A stretch of 64,000 nucleotides of DNA, taken from a virus. The notes below the pieces were generated by a model, which had not been told where the DNA came from, did not search any database, and saw only the letters and a list, made by a program, of their open reading frames with translations. The translations under genes and the position numbers were made by a program. Positions within the stretch are counted from its first letter, which is position 1. The number at the start of each line of letters is the position of its first letter. The stretch lies in IMG/VR virus record IMGVR_UViG_3300036773_000096, positions 56,180-120,179 of that record. The stretch is one strand, 5' to 3'. Below, piece after piece: positions 9,301 to 30,280 of the stretch.

Positions 9301-12300
9301 AAGTCCGCCAGTGCTTGAGTCAGCGCCTGATCCGTCGGATCCTCCGTCGGCACCATCGACGGGTCCGGTGTCGCCGGCAGTGGCAGCGCGTTGTCCGGGG
9401 CGTTCGGGGGCGGCGGGCTCATCAGGAACTCCCGCATCACCTTCTCCGTCGCCGCTTGCTGCGCGGCGTTCAGGCGCCCCAGCTTCTCTGGGTAGCTCTC
9501 CCCCTCCGGATCCGGCCCCGCCAGTTGGTCGGCTGTCTGCTGTATCTGCTGGCGCGCTTGCTCGGCCAGGTCGTCGAAGAACGTCTGCTTGTCCTTGATC
9601 CCCGCGTACGCCTGCGGCTGGTACGTCCGGTACCACGCTTCGGCTTGCCTCGCCAGAACTCCCACGATCATCACCCTCTCTCTGGGGCGATTGTGCACCC
9701 TTGGCGCGGTCGCGTTGTCCCGTGACGATTCCCCGCGCTTTATCCCACAGGCGCTGGCGCTCCGGATTCAGCTCTTGAGCCTGATCGAGGTGAGCGAATG
9801 CGCCCTCGAAATCGCCACCATCGGCGGCGGCGCGAGCTTCCCGCATGTGCTCCTGAGCGCGGGTAACGCGGTTGCCGTCGGCGGCTAGTCGGGCGTCGCG
9901 CTCATCGCGGCGAACCTGCTGCGAGTGCGGCGCGGGTTCAGTGGACGGCGCGGCGGTGCTCGGAACCGGACCCTTGCGGGGTGCGTCCACCGCGCCGCGC
10001 TTGCCATCCTCCGGCGCGCCCTTGCGGCGGCGCAACTCCGCGTCCACTGACCCGATCAGCGACTTGATGCGGTCGCGGTCCAGGCGCTTCGCGAGCCGAC
10101 GGGCTTTCGCGCCCTCGTTGCGCTTCACTCGGCGCTGCTCACGCAACGCCCCGGCTGCGGTAAACAGCATGCCGGCCTTGAGCTTCCCGGACGCGATGGC
10201 GGTATGGATGTCCCCGTCGCCGATGGCGGTGCGGATGTCGTCGAAGGCCGTGGAGTCCCCGTGGCGGCGCAGCATCTTCGCGAAGCGTTCAGCGGCGGCA
10301 GCGACCGCAGCGTCATCACGCGGAGTCGCGTTCAGAGCATCGCCCAGATCCTCAGCGGCACCCGCGACACCGGGACGGACCTTCGGGCCGGTATCTTCCG
10401 GGCCGGCCGGGGCGTCCGTCGCCGACACGGAAGACGCCCCGGCTTCCGCCTTCCGGGTCGCTGCCTCCCGCTTGCGTTCGGTGTCGCGACGGTGCAGTTC
10501 GTCCTGAAGCGCGAGTTCGTCAGTGAGGTCTTTGCGGGTTTCGGTCAGCTGCGGGTCGGTCTGGTCAGCCAGACCAGCCTCACCGGTCTCCAGCAGTGCC
10601 GCCACCCGCTCCTGGCGGTCGGCGACCTCCTGAGTGACCTCCTCCTGCCCGTCGGGGCCGTCCGACAGACCCAGGGCCTCGCCCCGGATGCGGTGGGCGG
10701 AGTCGGCGACCTCCGGCGGCACGGGCACGGTGCCGTCCGGGGTGCCGGCGGGCACTTCCCCGCCAGTGGACTCCGGTGCCTTCGGGTGCTCACCCAGCGG
10801 CAGCGTGGCGAAATCGTGGCGACCGATGCCGGCGGCGTCGCGGCGCTCGTAGTCGTCGGCGCGGTCTCGCATCCGCTTGGCTTCACCGTCAGACGCGCCA
10901 CCGCCCGTCTTGTCGGCGCGCTTGCGCAGTTCGTCGGGAGTGATGCGGCGCCGGATCTCCTCCGTGCGGACACTGTCGGCCATGTTGGCGCCGTGCCCAC
11001 CACGTCGGGTGGCTTCCCGCTTGACCGACGCAAGCTCAGTGTCGTCGAGCTGGCGCAGCGCGGCGTCCCGGTAGGCGGGGTGACTGCGCTTCTGGATTGC
11101 CGAGTAGTCGATCTGGCCCGGCGCGGGGCGCAGTGGGTCCGGCTTGACCTTCGGCCCTCCGGTGTCCTCCGGTGCGGTCGCCGGAGGCTGGTCACCGGGG
11201 GTGTCGGGGTTCTCGTCGGCGTGCAGCGCGCCCCGGACGTGGCGGGTGTACTCGGCCAGGTTCTCGTGCAGCAACTGGCGCTGCGGGGAACCCGCGCGGG
11301 GCTTGCCACCCACCTGGACCTTCGAGTTGTCGGCCTTCAGCGCCGCGACGATGCGCTGAAGGCCGTCCAGGGTGGCGTGCAAGGTAGCCGAGTCAGGTGC
11401 CTCGGCCATCTGGTTCTTAACCCGGATCAGTTCAGCGGCCAGCTTCTCCGGCGTTTTCGCCGACGGGGAGTCCAAACTGCCACGGGCGATGGTCGCCGCG
11501 TGGGCGAGCGCCGGGTCGCTCTGGTCGCGGGCGAGCGTCGCCAGCGCGGCGGACAGATGCGGGGCACTGACATGCCCAGACAGTTGGGCGAGCAAAGCGG
11601 AATCATCGGGGGCGGCCGGAGTGACCAGTGGGTGCGCGTCGACTTCGGGGGCCGGTGTCGATTCGGCGACGGTCGCGGCGGCGCGGCGGCGCGACTCGTC
11701 ACCGAAGCGGGTAGCGGCGAGCTTCGAGTCGGAGTACTCCAGGGAGTTCTTAGGCAGGTTGTTGCGCCGCGCCGTCATGTGCCGCTCGTGCGCGGCGGCG
11801 GACTCCGCCGCGAGCTGCGCGTCGGTCAGCTTCTCGGGGGCGTTGTGGTTCCCGGTGGGCTTGTATTCGTGCTCGGGCGCGGCCTGGGGCTTGTTCGGGT
11901 CGACAGCCGGGGTACCGGCGGACACCAGTGGCAGGGCAGAGCGGTTCTTAACCCCGCGTGTTTGGGTGCCGCCACCCGTGCCGTCGTCGTAGGTGATCAG
12001 TGTTTGCCCGGTGCGGCCCGGCTTGGCCTGGGTGACTTTGCCGCCATCGTGGCGCGACAGCATGACGTGGTCACCCGCGCGGACCTCACTGGCTTTCACC
12101 GTGGGGTAGCTGCCGGGCTTGATGCCGTAGGTGTTGACCAGCACCGGGGTGCCGTACTTGCGGTCATCAGCAGGCGCGGCCGGCGCTTCCGGAGTGGCTG
12201 GCGGCGTCTTTGGCAGGTCGTAACCGCCGGGGATGGTGTTCGCACCGGCCGTCACGGTGGTGGTGCCGTCGGCGTGGGCGGTGCCTACCGGATTCGGCTT

Positions 12301-13998: not shown

Positions 13999-15863
13999 GT
14001 CACGGCCTCCGCCGATGCCGCCTCGAACAGCGCACCCCAGCCACCGTCGTCAGCACCGGGGTCCGGGTCGCCCGACGGCACCCCGTCGACCGGGTCCGCC
14101 TCGGGCTCGGCCTCCTCGACCACCACAGGGTCGGGGTCGGCGACGAGCTTGGAACCCAGTGCGGCCAGCGCGGCGGTGCGCTCCACCTCACTGGGTGGCT
14201 CGGCGTCCTCATCGGTGTCGCCCTGGGCTTCGGCCAGCTCCGCGAGATAACCCTCCACCCACGGCTCATCGAAAATCTGACCCCAGTCGTCGATGCCGGC
14301 GAACATCTCCGCTAAGTCCGGCTCGGCCACAGCGAGACTTTTGACCTCCGTGGCATCCCAGTCCCAGTCAACCAGCGACTTCACACCGTAAGTGATCGGC
14401 TTGCCGGGCTTGGCTTTCGCGGTGTGCGCGTTCTTGCCCGGCCACTCACCCGTGGCGATCTTGTGAATGTTCGCGGTCAAACCGTTCAGAATGCGCGGAT
14501 TGTGCACGTATTTCGCCAGATGCCGGCGCAGGCGCTTGAAATCACCGGGAATGCCCGGCTTCCACTTCGCCCGGCCTTTCGCGGTGCGAGCCCAGAAGTT
14601 ACGCAATCGCGACGCCCCCGGCGACGGTGAGGTGACCTTGACCTCGACCCCGTCCTCCAGGGACTTCCCGTGAAATGAGTGCGGCTCCAGGTAGCCGATC
14701 TTGGCGTGCACGTGGGGCTCGGCGCCCAACCGGATCGCCTCGGCCGCGAGGTGTTCTTTGTGCTTGGCCTTGTGGCTGTCGCGGACCTTCGAGTGTGCCC
14801 GGATCGCCGCGTGCAGCGCGGCCAGGTGCGGCAGCGGTGCGGGCGCGGCATTGCCCGGTGCCCACGACTTCGTCTCAACCTCATCCTCAGGTGCAGACTT
14901 CGTGCCGCTGCCGTCGGTGCTGGCACCTTCCAGCGTGTCGATGCGGGACAGGGTGTGCGCGCTGGCCCCCAGGCGCTTCGCGTGGCCCCGTAATACCCGC
15001 ACCCGCGCCGGGCGATCCTCAGTGGGACAGTTCCCGTGCTCCTCGATCGCCCGATGCAGATCATCAATGGACTCCAGGCGCGGCCCGTCATTGACCACCC
15101 GGCCCATGTTCATCTCCCGCACAGCGGCCTTGACCTCCGCACGGCCCATCATGTCCCCAGCCCACGACAGTCCCGCCGGCCCGCACGCCCCCGCGACCCA
15201 GATCAGCCCCGACATATCCAGGGCCTTGCCCTCAATCACCTCCTGCGCGTACGGACCGTCCAGGCCCTCCGCCGCGTCGCGCACCGCCTTCGGCGGTGTG
15301 AACGTGATCGACTTGACCTGTGGTCTGGGCATGCCCGCCTCCTGATCTCCCAACGGCACATCGAGCACGTCACCAGCGAGCGCGAGGCGCAGCGTGGTGA
15401 AGCGCACCGGGCCGGTGTAGCTCAACGCGTCGATGCTGATTCCGTAGCCGGCCGTCACATGCCACAGGACAGGGGTGTGCTGGTCGGGTAGATCCGGGTA
15501 ATCCTCACCCGTAGCCATGACCCAGGTGGCCCATTTGCGCAGTGGGTCAAGGTCGGGCGTGTCGCCCACCAGGTAGACCGCACACGGCTCTTTGTCGCTG
15601 CCGGCGTCCCCGTCGGGGTTCAACGTGGCGTGACCAATGATCCGAGCGGTGACCGCGTCCAGGCCCGGCCCGCTCGCCGTGATCAGCTCTTTCAAGTGCT
15701 GGGCTTGCCCCGCCGGCCACTGAGCGACGTCATCGCCCAGGTAGAGCAGGGTCAGGTGGATCTGATCGGCAGGATCACCGCCGTCGACAACCAGCTCACC
15801 GGGATTGTCGGGGATCAGTGCGAGCATGCCCCCGCTGTAGGTCTTCGGCTCCTCGTCAGTCAC
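13995..15863 (-). CDS. head-associated multidomain protein with an N-terminal 2H phosphoesterase (LigT/Acb1-like) domain
   Basis: Two HxT motifs (IHLTLLYLG, WHVTAGY); later domain RLRNFW...GDFKRLRRHLAKY...GLTANIHKIATGEWPG recalled from actinophage head proteins; GTG 15863 overlaps the upstream stop and its TGA overlaps the giant ORF start. Confidence 0.8.
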   Translation of the reverse strand: MTDEEPKTYSGGMLALIPDNPGELVVDGGDPADQIHLTLLYLGDDVAQWPAGQAQHLKELITASGPGLDAVTARIIGHATLNPDGDAGSDKEPCAVYLVGDTPDLDPLRKWATWVMATGEDYPDLPDQHTPVLWHVTAGYGISIDALSYTGPVRFTTLRLALAGDVLDVPLGDQEAGMPRPQVKSITFTPPKAVRDAAEGLDGPYAQEVIEGKALDMSGLIWVAGACGPAGLSWAGDMMGRAEVKAAVREMNMGRVVNDGPRLESIDDLHRAIEEHGNCPTEDRPARVRVLRGHAKRLGASAHTLSRIDTLEGASTDGSGTKSAPEDEVETKSWAPGNAAPAPLPHLAALHAAIRAHSKVRDSHKAKHKEHLAAEAIRLGAEPHVHAKIGYLEPHSFHGKSLEDGVEVKVTSPSPGASRLRNFWARTAKGRAKWKPGIPGDFKRLRRHLAKYVHNPRILNGLTANIHKIATGEWPGKNAHTAKAKPGKPITYGVKSLVDWDWDATEVKSLAVAEPDLAEMFAGIDDWGQIFDEPWVEGYLAELAEAQGDTDEDAEPPSEVERTAALAALGSKLVADPDPVVVEEAEPEADPVDGVPSGDPDPGADDGGWGALFEAASAEAVT

Positions 15864-16101
15864 AGGCGTCACCGGGGAAGTGCCAGGTTCCCCCGGCCAT
15901 CGCCTCGTCATAGGTGCACTCGTTGTGGTGCGTTCCCGTAGGCGTGATGACGTAGAAGTTCCACATGCTGGCGCCCAGCTGCTCAACGGCGATCGCTGGG
16001 CGGCAGCGCGGCCGGTAGACCTGCGTCCCGTCGATCAGGACGGGGCTACCGTGAGCGCGATAGTGCACATGGTCGCCGATAGTGAGCTGCACGTAGCGCA
16101 T
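15856..16101 (-). CDS. conserved small phage hypothetical protein
   Basis: IGDHVHYRAHGSP...CRPAIAVE...TPTG...GTWHFP pattern recalled from actinophage small proteins; start trimmed to ATG 16101. Confidence 0.6.
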   Translation of the reverse strand: MRYVQLTIGDHVHYRAHGSPVLIDGTQVYRPRCRPAIAVEQLGASMWNFYVITPTGTHHNECTYDEAMAGGTWHFPGDACD

Positions 16102-18545: not shown

Positions 18546-19886
18546 CTAAGCCGCAGCGGCCGGCGTGGCCACGATCTGACCCGCCGACACGGCCGCCACC
18601 GCCAGCACCACGCCCGCCGCGAGCACCAACGCCCCACTCGAAACACCCACCAGTGTCCCGGTCGGGACGGTCACCGCCAGCACCGCCGCGCCCGCGACCA
18701 CGGGTGGGGCCAGCGCGAGCGCCAGCGCGCCCGGCCAGGACAACTGCTGCCCCGGTGCCACCGCCACCTCGCCACCGAGCACCCGGTAACCCACCACGTC
18801 AGCCGGAACCGACACCTCGGGTATCGCCATCGGCTCACCCAGCTCCGGCGCACTGACCACTAGCGGGCCATCCGTTCGGGGAATCCCCGCCCGCAGCAAC
18901 CGGGTGGCCGCCTTCGGTGTGCCGCGCTGCGCCAAACCCACCGCGCGGGCCTTATCGGGGGCCGGTCTCGAGAAAAGCAGCGAACAGCGGCACCCGAACA
19001 CTTCCCGGCCACCGGCCGGCAGCACCATCGGGTCAGCGGGGAACCGCAGGCCGAACTCGCCCACCTGAAACTTCTCCCCCACGGGCCGGATCTGCCCGTC
19101 GGCCTCGACGTGGGTATGGCGGACCCGGTCATCGCGCCGCGACAGCCACTGAGTGTGGGTAACGCCCAGGGCTTTCGCCGCCCCCAGCGCGGCGTCGCCG
19201 GCCAGCGCCGTGGCCAGAGTGCGCCCGTTGATCAGCAGCCATCGGCCGCCGCGCTTGGTGGCCTCCATGACCCGGTCGATCGCCTCGGACAGGTTCCCCG
19301 CCGTGGAGTCGGCGGCCAGGATCTCCCGGCGGATGTCAACAGCGTGGCGTTCGTTGACTTCCAGCATCCGCCCCACTACCGAGTCGACCGCGCTGGAGAT
19401 CGCCGACCAGTCCAGTGCCGCGAGCCCCGTGTTCGGGCGCCCCAGGGACTTCGCGACAGCTGCGGAAGCGTCCGCCACGATCCGCAACCCCACCGGGCGT
19501 ACGGCGTCGGCGACCTCAGTGACCACCCGCTCGGGTAACACGTAGGACGCGTCGAGGGCTTTGACTTCGGTTCTATGTCCGTAAGAGGCCACTTCCCCTC
19601 GCCCTGATACCGATTTCACCCCATCGGACCAGAAGCGGGTGCCCTTGCGAGCCTTCGGGCCGCGCATCCGGGCCTCGACAACCGCCTCCAGCCGGTCGTT
19701 GTAGCCGCCGATCGCGGCATCCATCAACGCCACCGCCCGGTCGATGCGCGCCGCACCGTGATCGGCCAGCGCGGTGCGGATCGGGCCGGGCTCCGGATCG
19801 GGGAGAGCTTCGGAGATCATCGCGGCCTGGGCGGCCAACGCCGGAAGGGCGTCAGCGGCGAGCGGGTCGCCCCCCGCTCTGCTCAT
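18546..19886 (-). CDS. phage head morphogenesis protein (MuF/SPP1 gp7-like)
   Basis: WLSRRDDRVRHTH...ADGQ...F.VG...FPADP...GCRC motif; lies directly after the portal gene. Confidence 0.85.
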   Translation of the reverse strand: MSRAGGDPLAADALPALAAQAAMISEALPDPEPGPIRTALADHGAARIDRAVALMDAAIGGYNDRLEAVVEARMRGPKARKGTRFWSDGVKSVSGRGEVASYGHRTEVKALDASYVLPERVVTEVADAVRPVGLRIVADASAAVAKSLGRPNTGLAALDWSAISSAVDSVVGRMLEVNERHAVDIRREILAADSTAGNLSEAIDRVMEATKRGGRWLLINGRTLATALAGDAALGAAKALGVTHTQWLSRRDDRVRHTHVEADGQIRPVGEKFQVGEFGLRFPADPMVLPAGGREVFGCRCSLLFSRPAPDKARAVGLAQRGTPKAATRLLRAGIPRTDGPLVVSAPELGEPMAIPEVSVPADVVGYRVLGGEVAVAPGQQLSWPGALALALAPPVVAGAAVLAVTVPTGTLVGVSSGALVLAAGVVLAVAAVSAGQIVATPAAAA

Positions 19887-21525
19887 CCTCCAGGCTCTTG
19901 ACCTGAACTGGCGCGGCGTCGACCGCGCTACCCGGTGCGGTGCGATCAGCTTGGCCGATGGCCCGCTGGTTCGGTGGCCCCGCCGTCACCGCATCAGCCG
20001 GCGCGCCACTGTCCTGTCCAGGGCCTTCCAGGTCCGCGCTCGGGTCGACACCGAAGCCCGCCGGCAGCGTATTGGGCACCCCGGCACCGCCCGCGCCCCC
20101 AGCCGGTGCCATGCCGAGCTGCCCATTGCCGATGGGGGCGTTGCCGGCGGCGTGAGCGTCCCCGTCGTGGGCGGGCTGACCGTCGTCGATGGCCAGGCGC
20201 GCGGACGGGATCCACAGCACGCGGGTACCGGGGACGTTTATCGGATCGCGGTCGCACACCTCGCGGTACTCGTCGATGCTGATCGCGCCCCGGTCGAGGT
20301 CGGCCGCCGCCCGGTCCTCATCGGCGCGCTGATGCCGGCCCAGCACCCACACATCGGAAACGTCATGGGAGAGGTAGGTCTCATCGTCATAGCCGCCCGG
20401 TGACAGGACATCCAATTGCGCGTCCAATAGCCGGAACAATGGCAACATGCAATGCTCCCACGCTTTAGCGTAATCAGCATCAGCATTATCGAATGTTTGC
20501 CCCGACGCATCGGAGACAACGGACTCGGGCAGTCCGAACGCCACGCAGATCTCGCGTTTGGTCCGGTCCATGGTGTCGGCCCACTGAGTGTCCCGGGGTG
20601 TCCCGGACGTGTCCGTCCACGCCATGTCGTCGGCTTCGATGACGGTAGTGCGGGCATTGGAGACGTTCGGCCCCCCGTTGAACCGGGCGGCCAGCACGTC
20701 CTCATAGTTCGGGTCCAGGGGGCCCTTCACGGCCAGGATGCCGCCCGGCCGGCCGTCTTCGAGCATGAACCTGCGGTTGTACAGGCGCGCATATCGGTCG
20801 AGGTCTGCGGACAGGCCGGCGGCTTCCATGGGCGACATGCCGCGCTCGAACATCGTGGGGTGCGGGGAGCGCAGCCACACGATGCCGCTGGGCTGGTCCT
20901 CTGGAGAAGCGTTGGGATCGAACGGTGGCCGCCAATCCCACCGGGGGGAACCATTGGCTACCGCCGTGGTCACCCGGAACGACTCGATGGGAGTGACGAC
21001 ACCGATCTCATTCGGATCCTGCGGGTTCTTCTTCCGCCGCCCCGGCACGGGCAGAACCGCATCAGGATCCAGCAGGTAAACCGAGTGGATACCGCCGCCG
21101 CGTGTGCGGACCGCCTCGACGAACACCCCGCGTGAGGACAGCATGAACTGGGCGGTGAGACGGTGACGCCAAACCTGGGCGATCTCCCACTCATTGGCGC
21201 GGCGGTTCAGCCGGCGCAGGATCCGCTTCTGCTCCCGGTCCTGCTGGCCGGGGTCGATGATCTCCCCGTCGTTGGGGTTGTCGCGGCGCAGCACGATCTG
21301 TCTGGCGCGCTCATTGGCGGCGATGAACTCCACACACCGGAAGACATACGGGTTCCAGGAGTAGCCCTCACGCACCGCGCGGTCGGTGTCCCAGTCAACG
21401 GAGTAGGGCTGGCCGGGAACGATGTAGCCGCGTGGGCCGGTGACCACTCGGGAGTCCAGGCCGCCACCTTGACTGCCTGCTCCAGCGAAACGCGCGCGCA
21501 GGGCCGGCAGGAAGCGACGGGCCAC
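19852..21525 (-). CDS. portal protein (HK97 family)
   Basis: NPYVFRCVEFIA, GMSPMEAA, PGGILAV, ICVAFGLPESVV, ISIDEYRE; GGAGG RBS fits GTG 21525. Confidence 0.92.
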   Translation of the reverse strand: MARRFLPALRARFAGAGSQGGGLDSRVVTGPRGYIVPGQPYSVDWDTDRAVREGYSWNPYVFRCVEFIAANERARQIVLRRDNPNDGEIIDPGQQDREQKRILRRLNRRANEWEIAQVWRHRLTAQFMLSSRGVFVEAVRTRGGGIHSVYLLDPDAVLPVPGRRKKNPQDPNEIGVVTPIESFRVTTAVANGSPRWDWRPPFDPNASPEDQPSGIVWLRSPHPTMFERGMSPMEAAGLSADLDRYARLYNRRFMLEDGRPGGILAVKGPLDPNYEDVLAARFNGGPNVSNARTTVIEADDMAWTDTSGTPRDTQWADTMDRTKREICVAFGLPESVVSDASGQTFDNADADYAKAWEHCMLPLFRLLDAQLDVLSPGGYDDETYLSHDVSDVWVLGRHQRADEDRAAADLDRGAISIDEYREVCDRDPINVPGTRVLWIPSARLAIDDGQPAHDGDAHAAGNAPIGNGQLGMAPAGGAGGAGVPNTLPAGFGVDPSADLEGPGQDSGAPADAVTAGPPNQRAIGQADRTAPGSAVDAAPVQVKSLEDEQSGGRPARR

Positions 21526-21659
21526 AACCACCTCCGAAGATCGGACGGGTCAATGTAGCCACGCCGGGAGGCCCGGAACGCATCGACGCGCCGGGGATGG
21601 GAGGCCCGGCGCGTCGATAGGAGGGGTGATGCTGGCGGGTGGTGGTTCGCCAACGCCGA

Positions 21660-23852: not shown

Positions 23853-23904
23853 CCGGAACGAGGGCCAGTCTACTGGGTGAGTTCCGTAGCTGTCCAGCTG
23901 TCCG
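23853..23904 (-). promoter_or_regulatory. promoter TGGACA-N18-TAGACT-N7-GTTCCGG overlapped by a GCTGTCCAGCTGTCCG operator-like 16-mer
   Basis: Motifs read directly; the same 16-mer occurs at 25284-25299. Confidence 0.6.
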
Positions 23905-23925
23905 GACAGGTGCTACTGTGAGCGC

Positions 23926-24165
23926 ATGGCCCAACCATGCACTCGCACCTATGCGGATGACGTGACCGACGCGCTGACGTTGCTCGACGACGCGCAGCGG
24001 GAGATCAAAAACTGGCGCGCCCACCTGAATGCCCTAAGGGAAGACCCCAACCCTGGGCGCGCCCGGCAGGCCCAACGCTGCGGCGAGATCGTTGCGGCAG
24101 CAATCAACGCTGCGGTCTGTAACACGCGGGACGCGGTCGGCGATATAACCCGTATCAGCCACTGA
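23926..24165 (+). CDS. hypothetical protein divergent from the sigma operon
   Basis: 79-aa ORF; the real start may be GTG ~23962. Confidence 0.45.
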   Translation: MAQPCTRTYADDVTDALTLLDDAQREIKNWRAHLNALREDPNPGRARQAQRCGEIVAAAINAAVCNTRDAVGDITRISH

Positions 24166-24181: not shown

Positions 24182-24352
24182 ATGAAGATCCGTTCCGCCC
24201 TCGCCGTGACCGCTGCCCTCGGTGGCGGTGCCGTGCTCACCGCCGCGCCCGCACTCGCCTGCGGTGACACTCCCGGCTTTTGCCCCAACCCGCCCACCAG
24301 CTCCAACCCGGACAACGGCGACTACGGCGTCGGAGTCGGCGGAGACTGGTAG
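24182..24352 (+). CDS. 56-aa secreted peptide (not in the ORF track)
   Basis: AAGGA RBS; MKIRSALAVTAALGGGAVLTAAPALA signal peptide with AxA site, then CGDTPGFCPNPPTSSNPDNGDYGVGVGGDW. Confidence 0.6.
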   Translation: MKIRSALAVTAALGGGAVLTAAPALACGDTPGFCPNPPTSSNPDNGDYGVGVGGDW

Positions 24353-24360
24353 ACAAGGAT

Positions 24361-24437
24361 TGGCCGCTAGCTCAACGGTAGAGCGGCTCGCACGGCGCCG
24401 TGCGGGGCGGCCCTGGGTTCGACTCCCAGGCGGCCAA
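24361..24437 (+). ncRNA. tRNA-like RNA / pseudo-tRNA lacking an anticodon loop
   Basis: 7-bp acceptor stem TGGCCGC/GCGGCCA, T8A9, D arm GCTC-AACGGTA-GAGC, T arm CTGGG-TTCGACT-CCCAG; the anticodon arm is a ~9-bp stem with a 4-nt loop; no encoded CCA. Confidence 0.7.
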
Positions 24438-24438
24438 C

Positions 24439-25269
24439 TCAGTGGATCGTGGTCTCGAAACTGAGCACGTAGCTCGATGCCTCGATCACCGCGATCGAAC
24501 ACTCCACCGGCCGGTCCCCCGCGTAGAACACGCGCATGATCTCCCCCACGGGCCCCACCACATCCATACCCAGAACCTGACGCTCACGCGGCGTCGGGGG
24601 GCGAACCCTGACCTCCTCTAAGACGCGGGACACCACGAGCCCCACGGAGTACAGCTCCGCCAGGGTTCCCCCCGGCCAGGGCTGCCGATCCGGGTCAGCG
24701 ACCGGGGTACCGGCCACTAGGTCTAAGGGAATCACTGACGTTTGCAGCTGCACCGTCACCCCGCGCACCTGCTTAATCAGCTCCCGCGCGAGCACCATCG
24801 CACCGGGCACCAGCTCCAGGCGCGCCGCGAAATCCTCACCGGCCGGCTCTTCGACGTAGTGGGCGAGCACGTTGTGCTCCGGCCACGCCACACCGTGATC
24901 CGTCGTGAACGCCGACGACAGCGGATGGCAGCCATCGTGGGCGCGGATCGCGTCCAGGGCCTCCTGGTATCGCTGCGTCGACATCCGGCGGACTTGCGGT
25001 GGGGTAGCCACTCGGGTGGGGCACCCCGAGCGCTTCACGATCCGGCCCTCAGCTACCAGGTCATCCATGGCGGTGCGCACCGTGGCGCGGGCAACGCCGG
25101 CCATTTCGGCGATCGCATGCTCACCGGGCAGGGTCTCACCTGCGGCAAGGGTGCCGTCGATGATCGCTCGACGTATCGCGTCGGCGACCTGACGGTGCAG
25201 CGGCGTGCCCACCTCGAAGCGGTTGACGCTCCGAAAGTGGACCCCAGTTAGTGGCACGCCACGAATCAT
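24439..25269 (-). CDS. GntR/HutC-family repressor (KorSA/TraR-like) with UTRA domain
   Basis: PLHRQVADAIRRAIIDGTLAAGETLPGE...VARATVRTAMDDLVAEGRI wHTH; UTRA-like C-terminus; divergent from the transfer genes as in Streptomyces plasmids/AICEs. Confidence 0.88.
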   Translation of the reverse strand: MIRGVPLTGVHFRSVNRFEVGTPLHRQVADAIRRAIIDGTLAAGETLPGEHAIAEMAGVARATVRTAMDDLVAEGRIVKRSGCPTRVATPPQVRRMSTQRYQEALDAIRAHDGCHPLSSAFTTDHGVAWPEHNVLAHYVEEPAGEDFAARLELVPGAMVLARELIKQVRGVTVQLQTSVIPLDLVAGTPVADPDRQPWPGGTLAELYSVGLVVSRVLEEVRVRPPTPRERQVLGMDVVGPVGEIMRVFYAGDRPVECSIAVIEASSYVLSFETTIH

Positions 25270-25275
25270 AGCCGA

Positions 25276-25316
25276 CCTGTCAGGCTGTCCAGCTGTCCGT
25301 ACACCCGGTGTACTGT
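25276..25316. promoter_or_regulatory. divergent kor/tra promoter region with 8-bp-period (G/C)CTGTC repeats (operator candidate) and a TACTGT -10
   Basis: CCTGTCAG-GCTGTCCA-GCTGTCCG direct repeats between the GntR gene and the first transfer gene. Confidence 0.55.
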
Positions 25317-25393
25317 GGTGAGACCACAAGACGTCGCCGGCCGGACGGGTGGAACGAACCCCGCCGGCCGGCGAAACCAACGAAGGGGGCGAC

Positions 25394-26230
25394 ATGGACG
25401 CAGACGCCAGGGCCCCCCTGTTCAACCGCTGGACGTGGGGCGCGGTCGGGCTCACCATCGCCCCGCTGATCCTCTGGGGCGCCGCCAGCGTGTTCCTGCT
25501 CGCCGTAGCGTGCGGCATTCCCGCCTACCTCGCGTGGATCCCGTCAGCGTCGACCACGGGCGTCATGCTCGTGTCGTCGATCTTCGCGATGACCGAAAGC
25601 CTCTCCGATGAGGTCCGCACCTACGCCCGCCGGATGGCCTACTCCGCGATCGGCCTGGACACCGTCGTGTCCGGCCTGCACCTCGCGCTGCCAGTGCACC
25701 TCAATCCCGCCGTGGGGTGGCTGGTGTTGATCGGCATGCTGCCCCCCCTGACTGGCGGCATCACCGGGCACATGATCGCCGCCGCTGTCCGTGAGCACCG
25801 CGCCACCGGCAAGGCGGCCGTCGCCGCCCAGCTCGCCGCCGAGCAAGCCCACCGCGACAGTGAGGCCGCCATCGCACGGGCGGAACGTCTCGCGACCATC
25901 GCCCGCGCCGAAGCCGACGCCAAACGCATCGCCGATGAGGCCGATGCCCGCAAGCGCGCCGCTGCGGCGGCCGTCGTCAACACGGCGCTGACCGGGCCGA
26001 CGCTAGTCCGCGCCCCCGCGCCGAAGCCCCCGGCCAGGCGCACCGCGAAGCCGACCTTGCGTGATGCGGCGGTCGCCGAGCTGGTCCGTCGTCACCGCGC
26101 CGGCCAGAACATCGCGGCCACGGTGGCCGCCGAGCTGGACATCGCGATCGGCGCCGGCAAGGGCTACTGCAAGAAGTTCCTGCCCGAAATCGTCGACCAC
26201 GTGCTCACCGCTGAAAGGAGGACCGCCTGA
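25394..26230 (+). CDS. Spd-like / DUF2637-like membrane spreading protein
   Basis: N-terminal multi-TM region, coiled coil and C-terminal helical domain; position between kor and traB; GAAGGGGG RBS. Confidence 0.65.
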   Translation: MDADARAPLFNRWTWGAVGLTIAPLILWGAASVFLLAVACGIPAYLAWIPSASTTGVMLVSSIFAMTESLSDEVRTYARRMAYSAIGLDTVVSGLHLALPVHLNPAVGWLVLIGMLPPLTGGITGHMIAAAVREHRATGKAAVAAQLAAEQAHRDSEAAIARAERLATIARAEADAKRIADEADARKRAAAAAVVNTALTGPTLVRAPAPKPPARRTAKPTLRDAAVAELVRRHRAGQNIAATVAAELDIAIGAGKGYCKKFLPEIVDHVLTAERRTA

Positions 26231-27345
26231 TGGCCACGAAGACGACGGCCCGGCCGAAGCCGAAGGTCACGCCGCTGCCGGGGCAGAAGCGCATCACACC
26301 TAAGCCCACCAACGCCCGCGAGCACACCGCTGAACGGATCAGCAAGTGGATGGGCAAGCGCGGGTGGACTAAGGCCGTGCGGGGTGTCTACCGCTACAGC
26401 GTGAAGAAGTCTGAGGCCCGCCGGGAGAACCGGCTCGCGCTGAAAGAGATGCGCGAGAGCGCGGTGCCGACGTGGCGCCAGCGCGTGGAGCACCGCCGCT
26501 CCCAGCGCACCGGGGGCGCGGGGCGGGGGCGGGCTAAGAACTACTGCGCTGGGTGCGGCAAGGCCATGTCGGCCGAAGAGTTGCGCACGCACGACTGCGG
26601 GCCGAAGCCCAAAGCGGCCAAGGCTACAGCGGCAACGGCGGCGACCCAGCCGGCGCCCGCAGCCCCGCCGGCACCAGTTGCGGCACCGCAAGCGCCGCAA
26701 GCTCCACCCGCTGCGCCCTCAGACACTCCGGCTACACCGGCACCGACTCGACGCCAACGGCTGAAGGACCGCCTGTCCGGCAAGGCGGAGATGCCCACGC
26801 AGCCAATCGTGGCGCCGGCCGGCGCGACGGTCACCCCGATCGCAGGATCCAAGCCCGCACCACCCCCGGCGACCGCAGGGGCGAACAACAACGAAGGGAG
26901 CCCCCAAATGGCATGGGGCAGCAAGTCAGGCAACGGCAACGGTGCAAGCGCAGCTGGCGGCGGAAGCTCTGGGGCGGCCAGTTCCGCCACGGTCGGGGCG
27001 ATGCTCACGCCGTGGACGGCGTGGGCACAGAACGTACCCAAGACCCACATTGAGATGGTCGCCGAGCTGGAGGCGATGAACCAGCTGATGGTGGCCATCG
27101 GGCAGACCATCCGGGAGCGCCAGGCCCGCATGATCAACATGGGCTCTGGCCCCAACGGGGAACAGATCGGCTTTCACCCCACCTGCGTCCAGCAGCTCAA
27201 CGGGGCCGCCGACCAGATCTCCGCTGCCGGCGCCTACTTCACGGCCACCCACGTGGCGATCACCGCGCACTACCAGGCGCTGATCCAGCACTACCAGGGC
27301 GGCACTCCCGATCCCGGCCGCCAGTACCTGTCCAACGCCAGCTAA
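26230..27345 (+). CDS. TraA-like Pro/Ala-rich protein upstream of TraB (possible internal start at 26908)
   Basis: Basic N-terminus, PA-rich linker, helical C-terminal domain; second RBS GAAGGGAG before ATG 26908. Confidence 0.6.
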   Translation: MATKTTARPKPKVTPLPGQKRITPKPTNAREHTAERISKWMGKRGWTKAVRGVYRYSVKKSEARRENRLALKEMRESAVPTWRQRVEHRRSQRTGGAGRGRAKNYCAGCGKAMSAEELRTHDCGPKPKAAKATAATAATQPAPAAPPAPVAAPQAPQAPPAAPSDTPATPAPTRRQRLKDRLSGKAEMPTQPIVAPAGATVTPIAGSKPAPPPATAGANNNEGSPQMAWGSKSGNGNGASAAGGGSSGAASSATVGAMLTPWTAWAQNVPKTHIEMVAELEAMNQLMVAIGQTIRERQARMINMGSGPNGEQIGFHPTCVQQLNGAADQISAAGAYFTATHVAITAHYQALIQHYQGGTPDPGRQYLSNAS

Positions 27346-27368
27346 TCAGACGAGAGGAGCACACCATC

Positions 27369-29546
27369 ATGGGTCGACGCGTCGGGCACGCTCCGGCGAT
27401 CGCTCACGACCAGACCTGGGGCGAGTGGTACAACACGCATTCCCGCCTGTTGAACCCTTTCGCCGCCGGGGCGGCCGTGGGTCTCGCCGGGGTGCTCGAT
27501 GCGTTGCTCGTGCCCTTCTGGTGGCAGACCGTCGCGGGGGTCAGTGTCGCCGGGCTCGGGGTTTTCTTGTGGACTATTGGCCTGCTCGATGCGATGCAGC
27601 GCCGCGTCTACCGTTTCATCCTCGTGCTGGGCATGTTGTGGATGTTCGCCTGTCACACGCCGTGGGCGACGGAGTACAAGCTGGATTTCGGTATCGCCTG
27701 GTTTTGTGCGGTGATGCTGTCCGGGTGTGCCTACTGGACTGACCAGCGTGAGACGAAGCGTCGTGAGGTTGACGCTGAGGTCAAGGCGTGGGCCCAGTTC
27801 AAGGCTAAGAAGCTCGGAATCGAACTGTCCCGCATTACCCCTAAGAAGAAGACCAAGAACGGCTCTACGCGTCGCCTGTGGTGGGATGGGGACGATTACA
27901 CGGTGTCTCAGATCAAGGGACTCGCTCCCCGCATCGAGGCATCGTTGGGTATTCCCCTGGGGCAGCTGCGGGTCATGGAAGTCAAGAACGACAGCGACAT
28001 GACCCGGTCGGACTGTGTCGACCTCGTCGAGAACACCGACAACGCTGCCCGGCGCATTCCCGTGGCGTTCACCTCGCCCACCATGACGTCGATTTGTGAC
28101 GCCATGGACGTCGGGCCTTACGACGATGGCGAAATGTGCCAGATCTTCTGGTACAAGCAGGGATTCGGTGGCACGCACACTCTCGCCGCTGGGGCGACCC
28201 GGTCAGGTAAGAGCGGTTTGTACCACCTGATGTTGGCGGAGACGGCGAACTGTGACGATGTGGTGCGGTTCGGTATCGACGCCAAGGGCGGAATGGCGCT
28301 GCGGCCCTGGGCGCCGATGTTCCACTGGTTGGTGTGTGGTCGCGACGAGGCTGCCATGGAGGAGGCCGCCGCACTACTGGAGCGCATCAACGCGATCATG
28401 ATTTACCGGGAGAACTACGCGGCCAGCAAGGGCTGGGACGTCTGGCGGGTCAGTAAGAAGCACCCGTTGATCATTCTGTATGTCGATGAGGCAGCAGAAG
28501 TGTTCAACATGCAGATGGAGAACTTCCACGCCCTCCAGCTAGTGGAAAAGCTCGGCCGGATGGGTGCCGGTGTCGGTGTTCTGTTGTGCGCCGCAACCCA
28601 GTACCCGACTCTGGACGCGATCGGCTCCAGCCAGCTCCAGGCGAACATTCTGCGGAGGTTCTGTTTCCGGGTGCAGCAGACCGCACACCAGGCGATCGCA
28701 TTGGGTCGCCACAACGGGGCCGTGGATGCCACGTTCCCCGACAAGCCCGGCGGCGACAAGGGCGCCGGGTGGTGCTTCCTGTCCGAGATGGGCTACATGC
28801 GCGACATGGCGTTGCGGGTTCGCAACGTCGACCGTGACGGCATCTACGACATCGTGTGCAAGTACTGGACGCGGTGCTGCCCCCTGGATGCCGGCAGCGC
28901 GAACGTCGACTGCCGCAACGACGAGTACCGGGCCCGGAAGATCTGGCGCCCGGAGGACGTCAAGCCGAGCAGCGGCGTGTGGGCCGACGAGGACGACGAG
29001 GACACCCCGGATCCGGCGCTGGGACCTGACGCTATCGACGACGAGTTGGCGGAGATGCTCAGGGATTCCGGCGGGGACTCGAAGGGGAGCCCGGCGGGGA
29101 CTCCGGCCGGGGAATCAGCGGGGAACGAGCCGGGGACTCCGGCCGGGGAATCAGCGGGGAACGACACTAAGGAGCAGGTCATGGACACAGCGACGACGGA
29201 GGCCAGCATCCCGATCATGGAGATGCTGATGCCACAGGGCAAGGCCGAAGCGGAAGATCTGGCGGCGGCGCAGAAGCGGTACGCAGAGGAGAATGAGGAC
29301 TGGTCAACGGAGAAGGCCACTGCCGAGTTCTGGCGGATCTTCCAGGTGGCCGGCCGCGACGGGGTCCGGGTGAAGACCCTGCGGGAGAAGTGCCACCGGT
29401 CGGTGTCGTGGACTCAGAACAAGCGACGGGAGGCGCAGGAGGCCCAGGCGATCGTGCCGATCGCGGCGGGCTCGGAGTACTACCGGCTGGTGTCCCCGTC
29501 GATGGTGCCCCAGGCATACCGCCTGGACTCCGGTAACGCAGAGTGA
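27369..29546 (+). CDS. traB: TraB-like FtsK/SpoIIIE conjugative dsDNA translocase
   Basis: N-terminal TMs, Walker A AGATRSGKS, Walker B IILYVDEAA, ATQYP, low-complexity linker and C-terminal wHTH-like domain; AGGAG RBS. Confidence 0.88.
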   Translation: MGRRVGHAPAIAHDQTWGEWYNTHSRLLNPFAAGAAVGLAGVLDALLVPFWWQTVAGVSVAGLGVFLWTIGLLDAMQRRVYRFILVLGMLWMFACHTPWATEYKLDFGIAWFCAVMLSGCAYWTDQRETKRREVDAEVKAWAQFKAKKLGIELSRITPKKKTKNGSTRRLWWDGDDYTVSQIKGLAPRIEASLGIPLGQLRVMEVKNDSDMTRSDCVDLVENTDNAARRIPVAFTSPTMTSICDAMDVGPYDDGEMCQIFWYKQGFGGTHTLAAGATRSGKSGLYHLMLAETANCDDVVRFGIDAKGGMALRPWAPMFHWLVCGRDEAAMEEAAALLERINAIMIYRENYAASKGWDVWRVSKKHPLIILYVDEAAEVFNMQMENFHALQLVEKLGRMGAGVGVLLCAATQYPTLDAIGSSQLQANILRRFCFRVQQTAHQAIALGRHNGAVDATFPDKPGGDKGAGWCFLSEMGYMRDMALRVRNVDRDGIYDIVCKYWTRCCPLDAGSANVDCRNDEYRARKIWRPEDVKPSSGVWADEDDEDTPDPALGPDAIDDELAEMLRDSGGDSKGSPAGTPAGESAGNEPGTPAGESAGNDTKEQVMDTATTEASIPIMEMLMPQGKAEAEDLAAAQKRYAEENEDWSTEKATAEFWRIFQVAGRDGVRVKTLREKCHRSVSWTQNKRREAQEAQAIVPIAAGSEYYRLVSPSMVPQAYRLDSGNAE
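29095..29164 (+). repeat. 36-bp-period tandem repeat in the TraB linker
   Basis: CGGGGACTCCGGCCGGGGAATCAGCGGGGAACGA occurs at 29095 and 29131 (GTPAGESAGN x2). Confidence 0.9.
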
Positions 29547-29550
29547 CCAA

Positions 29551-29701
29551 TGGGCTGGACGGTGCTGGACTCCAGAACCATCCAACACCGTCCAGCCGGG
29601 CCGCCAGCGAGCCCTCGACCTTAGGGGTACCTCGCGGCGAGGCCAGCACCGTCCAGAACTAGCCAGCACTGTCCAACGCAGTCCAACACCATCCAACGAC
29701 C
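29551..29701 (+). repeat. clt-like array (candidate TraB recognition sequences), 10-bp period
   Basis: TCCAGAACCA, TCCAACACCG, TCCAGCCGGG, then GCCAGCACCG, TCCAGAACTA, GCCAGCACTG, TCCAACGCAG, TCCAACACCA, TCCAACGACC, plus two inverted copies at 29551-29570; immediately after the traB stop. Confidence 0.7.
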
Positions 29702-29717
29702 AAGGCGGCGACTACAC

Positions 29718-30062
29718 ATGGTGACCATCGCTTACGCGGCGGCACTGGCCCAGCCCCCCGGCCCGGAACCAGCCCCCAGCGGCATGTCCCCCGCCGCGCT
29801 GGGCACCCTGCTCGTCGTCGGGGCCCTGCTGTGGTGGTTCATCAAGATTCAGCGTGACCCACTGCGCAAGTGCGGCCGATGCCCCGCACCCAAACCGGAC
29901 GGCAGCTATCACCGTTGCCGGCACTGCGGTGGCAGCCCGGAGCGGCTGAAGACAGCGGCGTGGTGGTTCCTGGCACTGGGCATCCCGGTGCCCCGTGCGC
30001 GGCGCTACACCGATCGCCGGGCCCGCATGGCGGTGCCGAAGGACTACACGCGCGACGATTGA
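29718..30062 (+). CDS. small membrane protein with a Zn-finger-like CxxC...CxxC, as found after traB in AICEs
   Basis: TM segment followed by KCGRC...RCRHCGG. Confidence 0.65.
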   Translation: MVTIAYAAALAQPPGPEPAPSGMSPAALGTLLVVGALLWWFIKIQRDPLRKCGRCPAPKPDGSYHRCRHCGGSPERLKTAAWWFLALGIPVPRARRYTDRRARMAVPKDYTRDD

Positions 30063-30095
30063 TTCCCCTTCGATGTCCCGGTGTTCCGGCACGCA

Positions 30096-30130
30096 GAGAG
30101 ACCCCCAGCCGCGTCTGCTGGGGGTCTCTC
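30096..30130. terminator. terminator ending the transfer module
   Basis: Perfect 14-bp stem GAGAGACCCCCAGC / GCTGGGGGTCTCTC with a 7-nt loop, at a convergent junction. Confidence 0.75.
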
Positions 30131-30280
30131 GTGTGAGGGGGTTTAGTCCCCTCGGTTCATGTCGGCCTCCCCTAGTTGTCCCCTTCTCGGTTCCCCGTCA
30201 GTGTCGACCCTGGATCGCGCCCTACTCGACGGTCTCGGTTCCGCAGTGCTCGTGCTCGTAGGTGTCTGGATGCCGCATGG

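Follow-up and report, generated by a model that had tools for sequence, protein, structure and literature searches.

In the conjugative plasmids of Streptomyces, TraB alone transfers double-stranded DNA via the clt locus and, together with Spd proteins, also mediates intramycelial spreading; all such plasmids encode a GntR-type regulator, TraR, and their clt loci consist of direct 7-9-bp repeats adjoining tra (PMC4447253, PMC3583192). The traB/traR pairs are Kil-Kor systems, and TraB is toxic in Streptomyces when unregulated (PMC4447253). FtsK-like genes are also routinely annotated in actinophages, where a role in transfer is not among the proposals and published comments stop at "replication" or "development" (PMC11536984, PMC13587820).

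A phage with a conjugal locus is not new in kind, pZL12 (2010) being the precedent. This Streptomyces plasmid-phage, pZL12 / phiZL12, is the subject of Zhong et al. 2010 (J Bacteriol 192:3747). Its record (GQ919031) contains an FtsK-like gene, pZL12.71c (725 aa), and two genes adjoining it; a GntR gene is also present, with the head genes a few kb away; as in the phage described here, a virion-forming actinophage genome carries an FtsK/SpoIIIE-like tra gene, helper genes, and a GntR gene near the head genes. According to the passage of PMC3583192 that cites this work, conjugal transfer of pZL12 requires the major tra gene and the two adjacent genes, and by that account pZL12 sets an experimental precedent for conjugal transfer loci in phage genomes. 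However, pZL12.71c is barely related to the TraB-like protein of our window, the whole 64,000-nucleotide stretch that was analysed (BLASTP E = 0.002, around Walker A only), and the 280 bp that follow the pZL12.71c stop showed no comparable array. The pZL12 record has no annotated sheath or baseplate genes, whereas the tail of the window phage is contractile, and pZL12 has ParAB and an integrase, both missing here. An "FtsK-like DNA translocase" is likewise annotated in cultured actinophages, for example the Streptomyces phages Gilgamesh, Geonosis, Mandalore, and Naboo, which share an FtsK-family ATPase with the window phage; Gilgamesh gp10 is 27% identical to the window TraB over 32% of the query. 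Yet in Gilgamesh the next gene overlaps the gp10 stop and leaves no intergenic array, and neither a GntR nor a DUF2637 neighbour is annotated.

The window comes from a 120-kb phage genome of the myovirus type that is complete and assembles as a circle, its contig ends overlapping by 127 bp. An earlier note on this DNA had placed a conjugation module inside a capsid-encoding element, and this complete genome indeed encodes virions (TerL, portal, MuF, HK97 capsid, sheath, tape measure, baseplate, endolysin). The cassette, with its GntR repressor and hairpin, lies within 23.9-30.1 kb of the window as a compact block on the strand opposite to the flanking phage genes. Its GC and GC3 match those of the remaining genome, and the GntR stop lies 2.9 kb from the portal start, a neighbourhood that the whole phage clade shares. 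ORF, family, motif, and repeat analyses found the genes and sites of the TraB cassette where the earlier note had put them:

19852..21531, minus strand: portal gene (Pfam Phage_portal, 3e-35; PHROG portal, 6e-37)
23867..23925, no strand: bidirectional promoter/operator, copy 1, with GCTGTCCAGCTGTCCG at 23889-23904, then the palindrome CTGTCCGGACAG
23926..24165, plus strand: 79-aa gene from the ORF list, starting about 10 nt past a TACTGT -10-like box
24182..24352, plus strand: 56-aa protein with a hydrophobic N-terminus and Cys (signal or lipoprotein-like), with homologues in relatives L005 and L006
24361..24438, plus strand: tRNA-shaped element with an aberrant anticodon arm (ARAGORN: tRNA-???, anticodon 'cggc')
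24439..25269, minus strand (long ORF 24439-25518): HutC-subfamily GntR repressor, winged helix-turn-helix plus UTRA effector domain (Pfam, NCBIfam)
25270..25393, no strand: divergent promoter/operator, copy 2, 16-mer at 25284-25299, perfect palindrome GTACACCCGGTGTAC at 25299-25313
25349..26230, plus strand: g78, membrane protein with a divergent DUF2637 (hhalign; hydrophobic segment 31-67)
26230..27345, plus strand: g79, 371-aa clade-specific protein with no family match
27369..29546, plus strand: TraB-like FtsK/SpoIIIE-family dsDNA translocase, 725 aa (NCBIfam, PDB profile, motifs)
29555..29701, plus strand: clt-like array, unit approximately TCCA(A/G)CAC, 10-bp phasing
29718..30062, plus strand: g81, small membrane protein with one TM segment and a four-Cys zinc ribbon (CxxC...CxxC)
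30090..30135, plus strand: terminator-type hairpin closing the operon, with a 14-bp perfect core stem and no U tract

As judged from sequence and structure prediction, the translocase has the defining parts of TraB: an N-terminal membrane anchor, a Walker A/B motor, and, beyond an acidic linker, a predicted C-terminal winged helix. Walker A (G275-S282) and Walker B (D373-E374) are invariant in 21 homologues, and the C-terminal domain is modelled with a pLDDT of 83-90, its top Foldseek matches all being winged-helix domains. The family profile matches the FtsK motor in the PDB at 1e-18, and the top NCBIfam match is plasmid_TraB (3.8e-17, 13 orders of magnitude better than EccC), scored at 62 bits against an equivalog cut-off of 800. 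Like the Streptomyces plasmids pSVH1, pSN22, pJV1, pWTY27, and pIJ101, the phage has a divergently placed GntR gene, an FtsK-like pump that is anchored in the membrane and carries a C-terminal winged helix, one or more membrane helper genes within the operon, and a cis locus where direct 7-9-bp repeats are joined by inverted ones at the 3' end of tra or shortly beyond it. In contrast, TraB identity to the plasmid proteins is 22-25% over about half of the protein, homologues of SpdB2, Spd79, and TraA are not detectable in the phage, an extra 371-aa gene stands between the DUF2637 gene and TraB, and the replicon is a 120-kb virion-encoding phage lacking plasmid Rep or Par. The kinship to TraR-Spd-TraB-clt transfer modules is real, but the "complete Streptomyces-type module" of the earlier note goes too far for a TraB at 62 rather than 800 bits and a g79 lacking TraA homology.

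The two genes upstream of TraB fared differently. In the protein encoded by g78, an Ala-rich helical linker joins the N-terminal DUF2637 domain to a conserved C-terminal domain. The protein aligns with the DUF2637-type homologues of L012/L013/L016 at an hhalign probability of 97.9% (E = 6e-13), the L016 homologue itself matching Pfam PF10935 at 2e-19. It is the counterpart of the partner gene that immediately precedes TraB in actinomycete integrative and conjugative elements (AICEs). Calling it Spd-like is an overstatement, because only the kinship to DUF2637 speaks for that name. For g79, previously called TraA-like, no match was found in Pfam, PHROG, or NCBIfam or among plasmids, and that label is unsupported. 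The N-terminus of the protein is basic and is accompanied by a CxxC...HxC knuckle, a long disordered linker rich in Pro and Ala, and a helical bundle, conserved, at the C-terminal end; its structure model is confident only at residues 249-356 and gave no fold match. It is present in every phage relative examined and absent from cellular loci.

The array begins 9 bp past the traB stop codon and comprises nine direct units at exact 10-bp spacing in two blocks, plus two inverted units at the left edge. A left block (29555-29600) and a right block (29642-29701) flank a conserved central element (29601-29641) that contains a -10-like box. The pattern KCCARMRC has eight matches within 128 bp, against about 0.2 expected from its window-wide density. 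An array with this two-block layout recurs in the same position in all 11 distinct phage relatives examined, each with a different 7-9-bp word. The word tracks the predicted TraB recognition helix across relatives (SSWFY with CGTCCA(C/G), TW(T/L)Y with GTCCGG, STVHR with GACAG), a covariation that is confounded by shared descent.

On the other side of the operon, the repressor matches Pfam GntR (E = 3e-15) and UTRA (E = 3e-14) as well as HutC/PhnF-type families in NCBIfam, sits at the TraR/KorA position, and is kept in L005-L013. Because the helix-turn-helix begins only at residue 108 of the long ORF, the start is likely 25269 rather than 25518. The shared 16-mer noted earlier was confirmed: the 120-kb genome has exactly two copies of GCTGTCCAGCTGTCCG (23889 and 25284), each within a divergent promoter region and each conserved in relatives. 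Copy 1, whose 16-mer is conserved in L005-L007, separates a leftward Zn-ribbon/sigma operon, with a sigma-70-like site (TGGACA-18-TAGACT, 23896-23867), from a rightward small operon starting with the 79-aa gene, the ATG and coding sequence of which are conserved in the same three relatives. At copy 2, the palindrome GTACACCCGGTGTAC overlaps a TACTGT -10-like box, and palindromes of the GTACA...TGTAC type lie in the corresponding position in L006, L007, and L009.

We searched one genome per species from 185,579 species for cellular relatives. No cellular copy of this phage clade was found among them; the closest TraB relatives are 80 loci of mycelial actinomycetes, the best match being 34% identical. 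Judging only from the taxa of these homologues, the host is probably a soil actinomycete. In at least 44 of the 80 loci, TraB is immediately preceded by a DUF2637 gene, a repeat array stands at the TraB stop in most, with the word CGTCCGC in the majority, and an integrase follows in all four loci examined downstream, with xis in two. Because of this order, DUF2637-TraB-array then xis/integrase, we take the cellular loci to be bona fide AICE transfer cores. The AICEs (Micromonosporaceae, Streptomycetaceae, Thermomonosporaceae, and others) and the phage share the order DUF2637, TraB, array, the two blocks with a central element, and akin repeat words (CGTCCGC versus CGTCCA/CGTCCGG in the phages). 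They differ in that AICEs have xis and int after the array, where the phage has the small Zn-ribbon membrane gene and terminator, and in that only the phage has g79 between the DUF2637 gene and TraB.

Such kinship to AICE cores, together with the compact block on the opposite strand, might suggest an independent AICE or plasmid fragment newly inserted in the phage. This is very improbable. The portal has TraB and the DUF2637 gene at its side in 17/17 contigs that offer enough flank and a portal identity of at least 46% (counting a divergent copy in L157), and in 0/11 whose portals are at most 40% identical. TraB identity drops together with portal identity (TraB/portal pairs, in %: 95/97, 62/74, 50/74, 46/67, 28/56, and about 27/48), as vertical descent predicts. 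Conserved portal synteny, matching composition, and the lack of att-like direct repeats flanking the cassette contradict a recent passenger, int, xis, and rep are likewise missing, and a promoter/operator copy lies outside the core cassette, so the earlier note was right to argue against one. In a quick tree, the 14 phage TraB proteins stand opposite all 25 cellular ones across a single, weakly supported branch (SH-aLRT 75). The cellular L067 and the Kitasatospora plasmid protein share a clade with the phage proteins (support 96) in which the tree does not resolve their order. A single clade (support 87) unites 12 of the 14 phage proteins, the other two being long branches. Since the cassette stands beside the portal in all 17 relatives, each with its own repeat word, and has AICEs as cellular kin, it is by this comparative evidence an old, inherited phage module rather than a fresh AICE insertion.

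We tentatively favour, at somewhat short of even confidence, a model in which this AICE/plasmid-type cassette lets phage DNA spread without virions. The common ancestor of these contractile-tailed actinophages of ~100-130 kb, which form a clade, would have captured a working TraB-clt dsDNA-translocation cassette, which would since have been inherited vertically next to the portal. The GntR repressor would silence the rightward g78-g79-traB-g81 operon and the second small operon via both copies of the promoter/operator, and binding of an effector to its UTRA domain would lift this silencing. The N-terminal anchor would place TraB in the membrane along with the DUF2637 protein, the winged helices of the TraB hexamer would dock on the phased array 3' of traB on replicated phage DNA, and the FtsK-type motor would drive unprocessed double-stranded DNA across septal cross-walls or hyphal contact sites. 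Infection could then reach neighbouring compartments or hyphae, with no need for a stable plasmid or prophage state; if so, phage DNA may travel between hyphae without virus particles, beside the virion route. Several points weigh against virion-free spread: this TraB is far removed from any characterised protein, a long stem leads to the window's sub-branch in the tree, g79 has no counterpart in conjugative elements, and common ancestry confounds the word/helix covariation. Moreover, a lytic cycle may be too brief to transfer 120 kb, the toxicity of unregulated TraB makes a Kil-type role conceivable, and FtsK-like genes are frequent in actinophages, with no known transfer role.

The same cassette evidence would also suit a plasmid prophage in a living donor that combines TraB-type hyphal conjugation with virions, as in pZL12/phiZL12, and the contig assembles as a circle, although terminally redundant virion DNA would do so too. 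We consider this unlikely. Six-frame searches of the whole 120-kb genome found no integrase, resolvase, tyrosine/serine recombinase, ParA, or ParB, which leaves a plasmid-prophage state unsupported; plasmid Rep and xis were not found either, and none of the 132 ORFs belongs to a lysogeny-indicating family. The earlier note likewise saw no AICE integrase or Rep gene next to the module. The closest cultured phages are Gordonia myoviruses (portal identity 34-35%), and the species genomes held no close cellular copy. "Conjugative phage" is therefore overstated, as the term implies a donor surviving with the element as plasmid or prophage; the observation behind it is confirmed and its interpretation partly supported.

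Relationship to FtsK/SpoIIIE and sequence-directed loading are also compatible with a private segregation pump, in which TraB and the array clear or pump phage genomes across closing septa, vegetative or sporulation, and compartments or spores come to inherit a phage in the carrier state. The genome does encode a BldN/SigD-like sigma with an anti-sigma, and a sortase, all development-linked, and FtsK-like genes of Streptomyces phages have been discussed with host development (PMC13587820). Such spore-loading nevertheless seems distinctly unlikely: the array word forms a single local cluster and is neither enriched nor strand-skewed genome-wide, unlike KOPS/SRS-type guides, the nearest cellular kin are AICE transfer cores rather than chromosomal segregation genes, and the carrier state that it presupposes is hypothetical here.

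It is more doubtful still that the DNA stays in the cell, with TraB serving kil-type host takeover by arresting growth or septation, replication, concatemer resolution, or packaging support, or acting as a DNA-bound regulator. The Kil-Kor behaviour of traB/traR (PMC4447253) and the replication role proposed for phage FtsK-like proteins (PMC11536984) would fit, and TraB bound to the array around the -10-like box could control transcription. Yet the phage encodes its own TerL; membrane anchor, DUF2637 membrane partner, and loading array are kept jointly over deep divergence, which is the transfer configuration; and the word/helix covariation points to selection for specific DNA docking.

At the right end of the operon, g81 is conserved in L005-L010 and missing in the L012-L017 branch, where the terminator directly follows the array. 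The window's own hairpin folds at -41.4 kcal/mol (z = -5.4), and none of 200 shuffles was equally stable. At the left end, the tRNA-shaped element adjoins the GntR stop codon.

The cassette lies in a phage genome that appears to be whole. The record, whose bases 56,180-120,179 make up the window, totals 120,179 bp, is rated complete (100%) by CheckV in the class of viruses with direct terminal repeats, and was assembled as a circle because its ends overlap by 127 bp; GC content is 67% across the genome. TerL, portal, HK97 capsid, sheath, tape measure, baseplate and lysin are all encoded in this one replicon, which is the gene complement of a contractile-tailed Caudoviricetes phage. The nearest cultured phages are Gordonia myoviruses, with a portal identity of merely 34-35%. 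The main phage genes are the following.

Large terminase: T4-type
Portal, MuF-like protein and DUF932 protein: from Pfam and PHROG searches
3307-13998 (-): ORF of 3,563 aa, with Helicase_C as its sole Pfam match
13995-15986 (-): ORF of 663 aa, N-terminus matching the PHROGs 'head maturation protease' (1e-30) and 'RNA ligase' (3e-26)
Capsid protein: HK97-type
Tail and lysis set: tail sheath, tape measure, baseplate J, lysozyme/NlpC-P60 tail protein, endolysin
Replication-type set: helicases, exonucleases, primase-polymerase-like protein

The two long ORFs are placed between the MuF/DUF932 genes and the capsid gene, and homologues of both are portal-linked in related phages. Several accessory families among the small ORFs of the genome are out of the ordinary for a phage: a CDF cation-efflux transporter, a YdjM membrane protein, a sortase, and proteins with TIG and LysM domains. 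A BldN/SigD-like sigma factor and an RsdA-like anti-sigma factor are also present.

On plasmids of mycelial actinomycetes, TraB hexamers use their C-terminal winged helix to bind the clt locus and move dsDNA in unprocessed form, TraB and Spd membrane proteins drive spread through the cross-walls of the recipient mycelium, and the toxic pump is restrained by the GntR protein TraR (PMC4447253; PMC3583192). The phage cassette is laid out as follows.

23.9 kb: bidirectional promoter region with the 16-mer GCTGTCCAGCTGTCCG, at the left end of the cassette
(+): two small genes, between the first promoter region and the GntR gene
24361-24438 (+): tRNA-shaped element with an abnormal four-base 'anticodon', cggc, according to ARAGORN; abuts the GntR stop codon
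HutC-type GntR repressor gene with UTRA domain: convergent to the small upstream genes, divergent to the tra-type operon
Second divergent promoter region: the same 16-mer GCTGTCCAGCTGTCCG, then a perfect palindrome GTACACCCGGTGTAC overlapping a TACTGT box
Rightward: operon g78-g79-traB-array-g81, ending at a hairpin of -41 kcal/mol

The 16-mer is confined to these two sites in 120 kb, and both copies are kept in three relatives (contigs L005-L007), so that the shared operator proposed in the earlier note is real as a duplicated promoter with a predicted operator role. In the promoter region shared by the GntR gene and the operon, palindromes overlap the -10-like box. Together with its UTRA domain, the GntR protein has the makeup of a TraR/KorA-type repressor and is predicted to control the operon. 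The tRNA-shaped element is positioned downstream of the second copy of the shared promoter.

The pump itself, a 725-aa protein, combines a conserved motor with predicted membrane and DNA-binding domains. The Walker A and B motifs had been called intact, and their key residues (G275 and G280-K281-S282; D373-E374) are indeed invariant in 21 homologues. The family profile matches the FtsK motor structures 2IUS/2IUU (1e-18), and the protein has an FtsK/SpoIIIE-like PHROG match (1e-20), while its score against Pfam PF01580 is 20.6 bits, below the cut-off of 24. Hydrophobic segments at residues 30-51 and 54-76, with further stretches to about residue 125, predict an N-terminal membrane association domain. 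The C-terminal ~70 residues align family-wide as helix-helix-helix-wing. As modeled by AlphaFold, the last 134 residues have the order H-H-H-strand-strand (pLDDT 83-90), and every top Foldseek match to the model is a winged-helix DNA-binding domain, albeit weakly (best E = 0.04, probability 0.99); the C-terminus is thus predicted to adopt the winged-helix fold. The top NCBIfam family is NF041214 plasmid_TraB (62 bits, E = 3.8e-17, residues 26-493), followed by EccC (2e-4). Because NF041214 is an equivalog family with a cut-off of 800 bits, the phage protein falls well short of membership. In PLSDB, Streptomyces plasmid FtsK/SpoIIIE proteins and one annotated traB match at 22-25% identity over about half the length. 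The description 'Streptomyces-type TraB' therefore holds for the motor, the predicted anchor and the predicted winged helix, but not for the equivalog score (62 versus 800 bits), and the protein is a distant relative of the TraB kind rather than an equivalog of the plasmid protein.

Two observations concern the length of the homologues. P0019, a homologue of 1,158 aa (48% identity across 63% of the query), contains the Pfam homing-endonuclease/LAGLIDADG domains PF05204 and PF14528, pointing to an intein within a TraB-like pump of a phage. In contigs L015 and L016 the traB frames remain open well upstream of the gene, spanning 1,074 and 881 codons from stop to stop compared with ~670-730 elsewhere; these long frames may be due to chance in high-GC DNA, or may encode N-terminal extensions.

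The strongest evidence for a TraB/clt-type cassette is the repeat array, which had been described as clt-like and is a direct-repeat locus at the 3' end of traB. It begins nine bases past the traB stop and comprises eleven units with 10-bp phasing (29555-29701), in the order two inverted units, three direct units, a 41-bp central element and six direct units, the spacing of direct units being exactly 10 bp. The degenerate unit has eight matches within 128 bp, where ~0.2 would be expected. All phage relatives with a full-length TraB have an array at the equal position and with the same two-block layout, but with a differing word.

Repeat words of the array in the window and in related phage contigs
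Window and L005: GTCCA(A/G)
L006: GACCAGAAC
L007: TCGCCAG
L009: CTCCGGA
L012 and L013: GTCCGG
L014: GACAGGAC
L015-L017: CGTCCA(C/G)
L018: GAGACAG

Comparison among the phage TraB-like proteins revealed that where the predicted recognition helices are alike, the words are alike. This pairing of helix and word is as predicted for a cognate pump and docking site, although shared descent contributes to the pattern. Two other roles for the repeats were considered and rejected. First, the word could be a KOPS-like directional guide acting genome-wide, but it has no enrichment or skew outside the array. Second, the array could consist of GntR operators, but in L006 and L007 the promoter motif stays CTGTCC/TATCC-like while the array word becomes GACCAGAAC or TCGCCAG; the GTCCA common to the promoter region and array of the window may be coincidental. 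The non-repeat element between the blocks (29601-29641) is conserved at the equal place in L006, L007, L009 and L012-L017. Its sequence is CCTTAGGG(G/A)TAC in the branch of the window, whereas the L012-L017 branch has CCTGTAA...CCCCCAGCCCCC; it may be a -10-like box, a place where DNA bends or loading occurs, or a site for some other protein.

The genes around traB bear out the first reading of this region in part. The product of g78 had been called Spd-like, and it is a divergent DUF2637 membrane protein: hhalign links it with 97.9% probability to its L012, L013 and L016 homologues, the last of which matches Pfam PF10935 (2e-19). It is thus a relative of the upstream partner of TraB in actinomycete integrative and conjugative elements (AICEs). 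Neither g78 nor g79 has a tblastn match among 72,556 plasmids. For g79 the label 'TraA-like' is unsupported, as the protein has no Pfam, PHROG, NCBIfam, plasmid or fold match; the sole lead is an Atlas match of 0.77 to a cluster that is 34% 'TraA-like', below the level that counts. The small Zn-ribbon membrane gene g81 occurs in the window's branch of the clade.

Where is this arrangement found in cells? A TraB scan of one genome per species across 185,579 species confirmed 180 matches, of which the best 80 were retained as loci. These best 80 have at most 34% identity to the window's TraB, and their hosts are mycelial actinomycetes, including Streptomyces, Streptantibioticus, Actinoplanes, Dactylosporangium, Actinoallomurus, Asanoa and Catenulispora. 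A DUF2637 gene lies directly upstream of TraB in at least 44 of the best 80 loci, and in most of the 80, four to seven copies of a 7-mer, in the majority CGTCCGC, follow from the TraB stop. At the loci inspected, the repeats form two opposed blocks flanking a GC-rich element, CGCGYCTGCGC, in place of the phage central element. In four examined loci the array is followed by a tyrosine or serine integrase gene in every case and by an HTH_17 excisionase-type gene in two. By their gene content, the cellular loci are AICE transfer cores. Since g78 is a divergent DUF2637 gene, the phage cassette amounts to the AICE core DUF2637-TraB-array joined to a GntR gene. Three things set it apart: xis, int and rep are missing, the clade-specific gene g79 is inserted, and in the window's branch g81 is added. 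No phage structural genes were found near TraB in the best 80 of the 180 loci, and no cellular copies of the phage clade in the 185,579 species genomes.

Is the cassette then an AICE that inserted into a phage? The earlier note had seen no AICE integrase or Rep gene beside the module, and had taken the module not to be a freshly inserted passenger. A six-frame search of the whole genome likewise gave no match to tyrosine or serine recombinases (PF00589, PF00239) at E <= 0.1, and no att-like direct repeats were found flanking the cassette. What marks an AICE, an integrase with or without xis, a replication module and att repeats beside the transfer core, was thus not found here. A portal profile search returned 52 related viral contigs. 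The cassette lies 2-6 kb from the portal gene in all 17 contigs with portal identity of at least 46% and enough upstream flank, and in none of the 11 whose flank spans 8.6-10 kb and whose portal is at most 40% identical; contigs L152 and L161, which end within the cassette, are outside the 17. TraB is clear in 16 of the 17. The exception, L157 (portal 52% identical), has a strong DUF2637 gene and an 848-aa FtsK-like ORF with a TraB profile match of 6e-6 (pump and DUF2637 gene at L157:1469-4015 and L157:5832-6677, both on the minus strand), so its pump would be either much diverged or replaced. TraB identity drops in parallel with portal identity, and base composition is uniform between the cassette and the rest of the genome. 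Clade-wide synteny, this parallel divergence, uniform composition and the lack of int, xis, rep and att lead us to reject a fresh AICE insertion. In a quick version of the tree (14 phage proteins, 25 cellular proteins and a Kitasatospora plasmid protein), a single, weakly supported branch (SH-aLRT 75) parts the 14 phage proteins from all 25 cellular ones, with the cellular protein L067 and the plasmid protein unresolved beside the phage proteins in a clade supported at 96. Of the phage proteins, twelve group together (support 87), while L014 and L018 sit on long branches. We infer a single acquisition near the base of the phage clade, followed by retention under selection.

The corresponding parts of a TraB/clt-type system are present and appear to have co-evolved, and the cassette thus probably has a DNA-translocation function. 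How this would serve the phage is less certain. Pfam scans of the 92 small and remaining ORFs recognized nothing indicating lysogeny, partition or maintenance. Because neither genes for maintenance or integration nor cellular copies of the clade were found, virion-independent passage is favored: during infection, replicating phage DNA would pass without virions into neighboring compartments or touching hyphae. We consider this plausible, if short of an even chance. A stronger form, to be held only tentatively, is that an apparently virulent myovirus clade uses the captured TraB-clt cassette as a 'movement' system, sending naked replicating genomes through cross-walls and possibly into touching hyphae.

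Three other roles compete with virion-independent passage. The precedent for a conjugative plasmid-prophage is pZL12/phiZL12, reportedly a Streptomyces plasmid that forms virions. Its record (GQ919031) shows, close to head genes, an FtsK-like gene, the genes adjoining it and a GntR gene, but it also has ParAB and an integrase, whereas the six-frame search of the phage genome found no ParA/CbiA (PF01656) or ParB (PF02195) match, the partition genes of phage-plasmids of the pZL12/P1 type; a pZL12-like element is accordingly unlikely. A part in segregation at septa or in the loading of spores, with the phage in a carrier state, seems somewhat less probable still. Finally, the cassette might have a purely intracellular role, which we regard as improbable.

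The kind of element is already known, given the pZL12 precedent and the FtsK-like genes of Streptomyces phages, which several genome papers note without proposing a transfer role (including PMC11536984 and PMC13587820). What is new here is a portal-linked AICE-type core that is clade-wide, the occurrence of a TraB-type cassette in apparently non-temperate myoviruses, its extra gene g79, and a readable series of word/helix pairs. If virion-free passage is correct, phages of filamentous bacteria would have a second, capsid-free route of spread that bypasses receptor-based resistance, adsorption barriers and extracellular decay, and the boundary between phage and conjugative element would be blurred in a lineage showing no lysogeny genes. 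The movement reading, if true, would mean virion-free cell-to-cell infection in a multicellular bacterium, a counterpart of plant-virus movement proteins. The cassette also offers a concrete candidate function for the unexplained 'FtsK-like' genes routinely annotated in actinophages, and the lineage-specific words, each with its own TraB recognition helix, would be a natural specificity series for TraB-type DNA choice.

Two other phage genomes were considered as carriers of an equivalent module and set aside. The pump of pZL12 is related to the window's TraB at the superfamily level only, and gp10, the FtsK-like protein of the cultured Streptomyces phage Gilgamesh, has no array 3' of its gene and no GntR or DUF2637 neighbors. 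The cassette DNA had no match among 50,697 phage records. An FtsK-like gene on CP108533.1, filed as a 'plasmid' of Streptomyces sp. NBC_01220, aligns with the stretch of the query that Gilgamesh gp10 also matches, and at 129,653 bp this replicon is close in size to Gilgamesh (129,136 bp); it may be a Gilgamesh-like phage.
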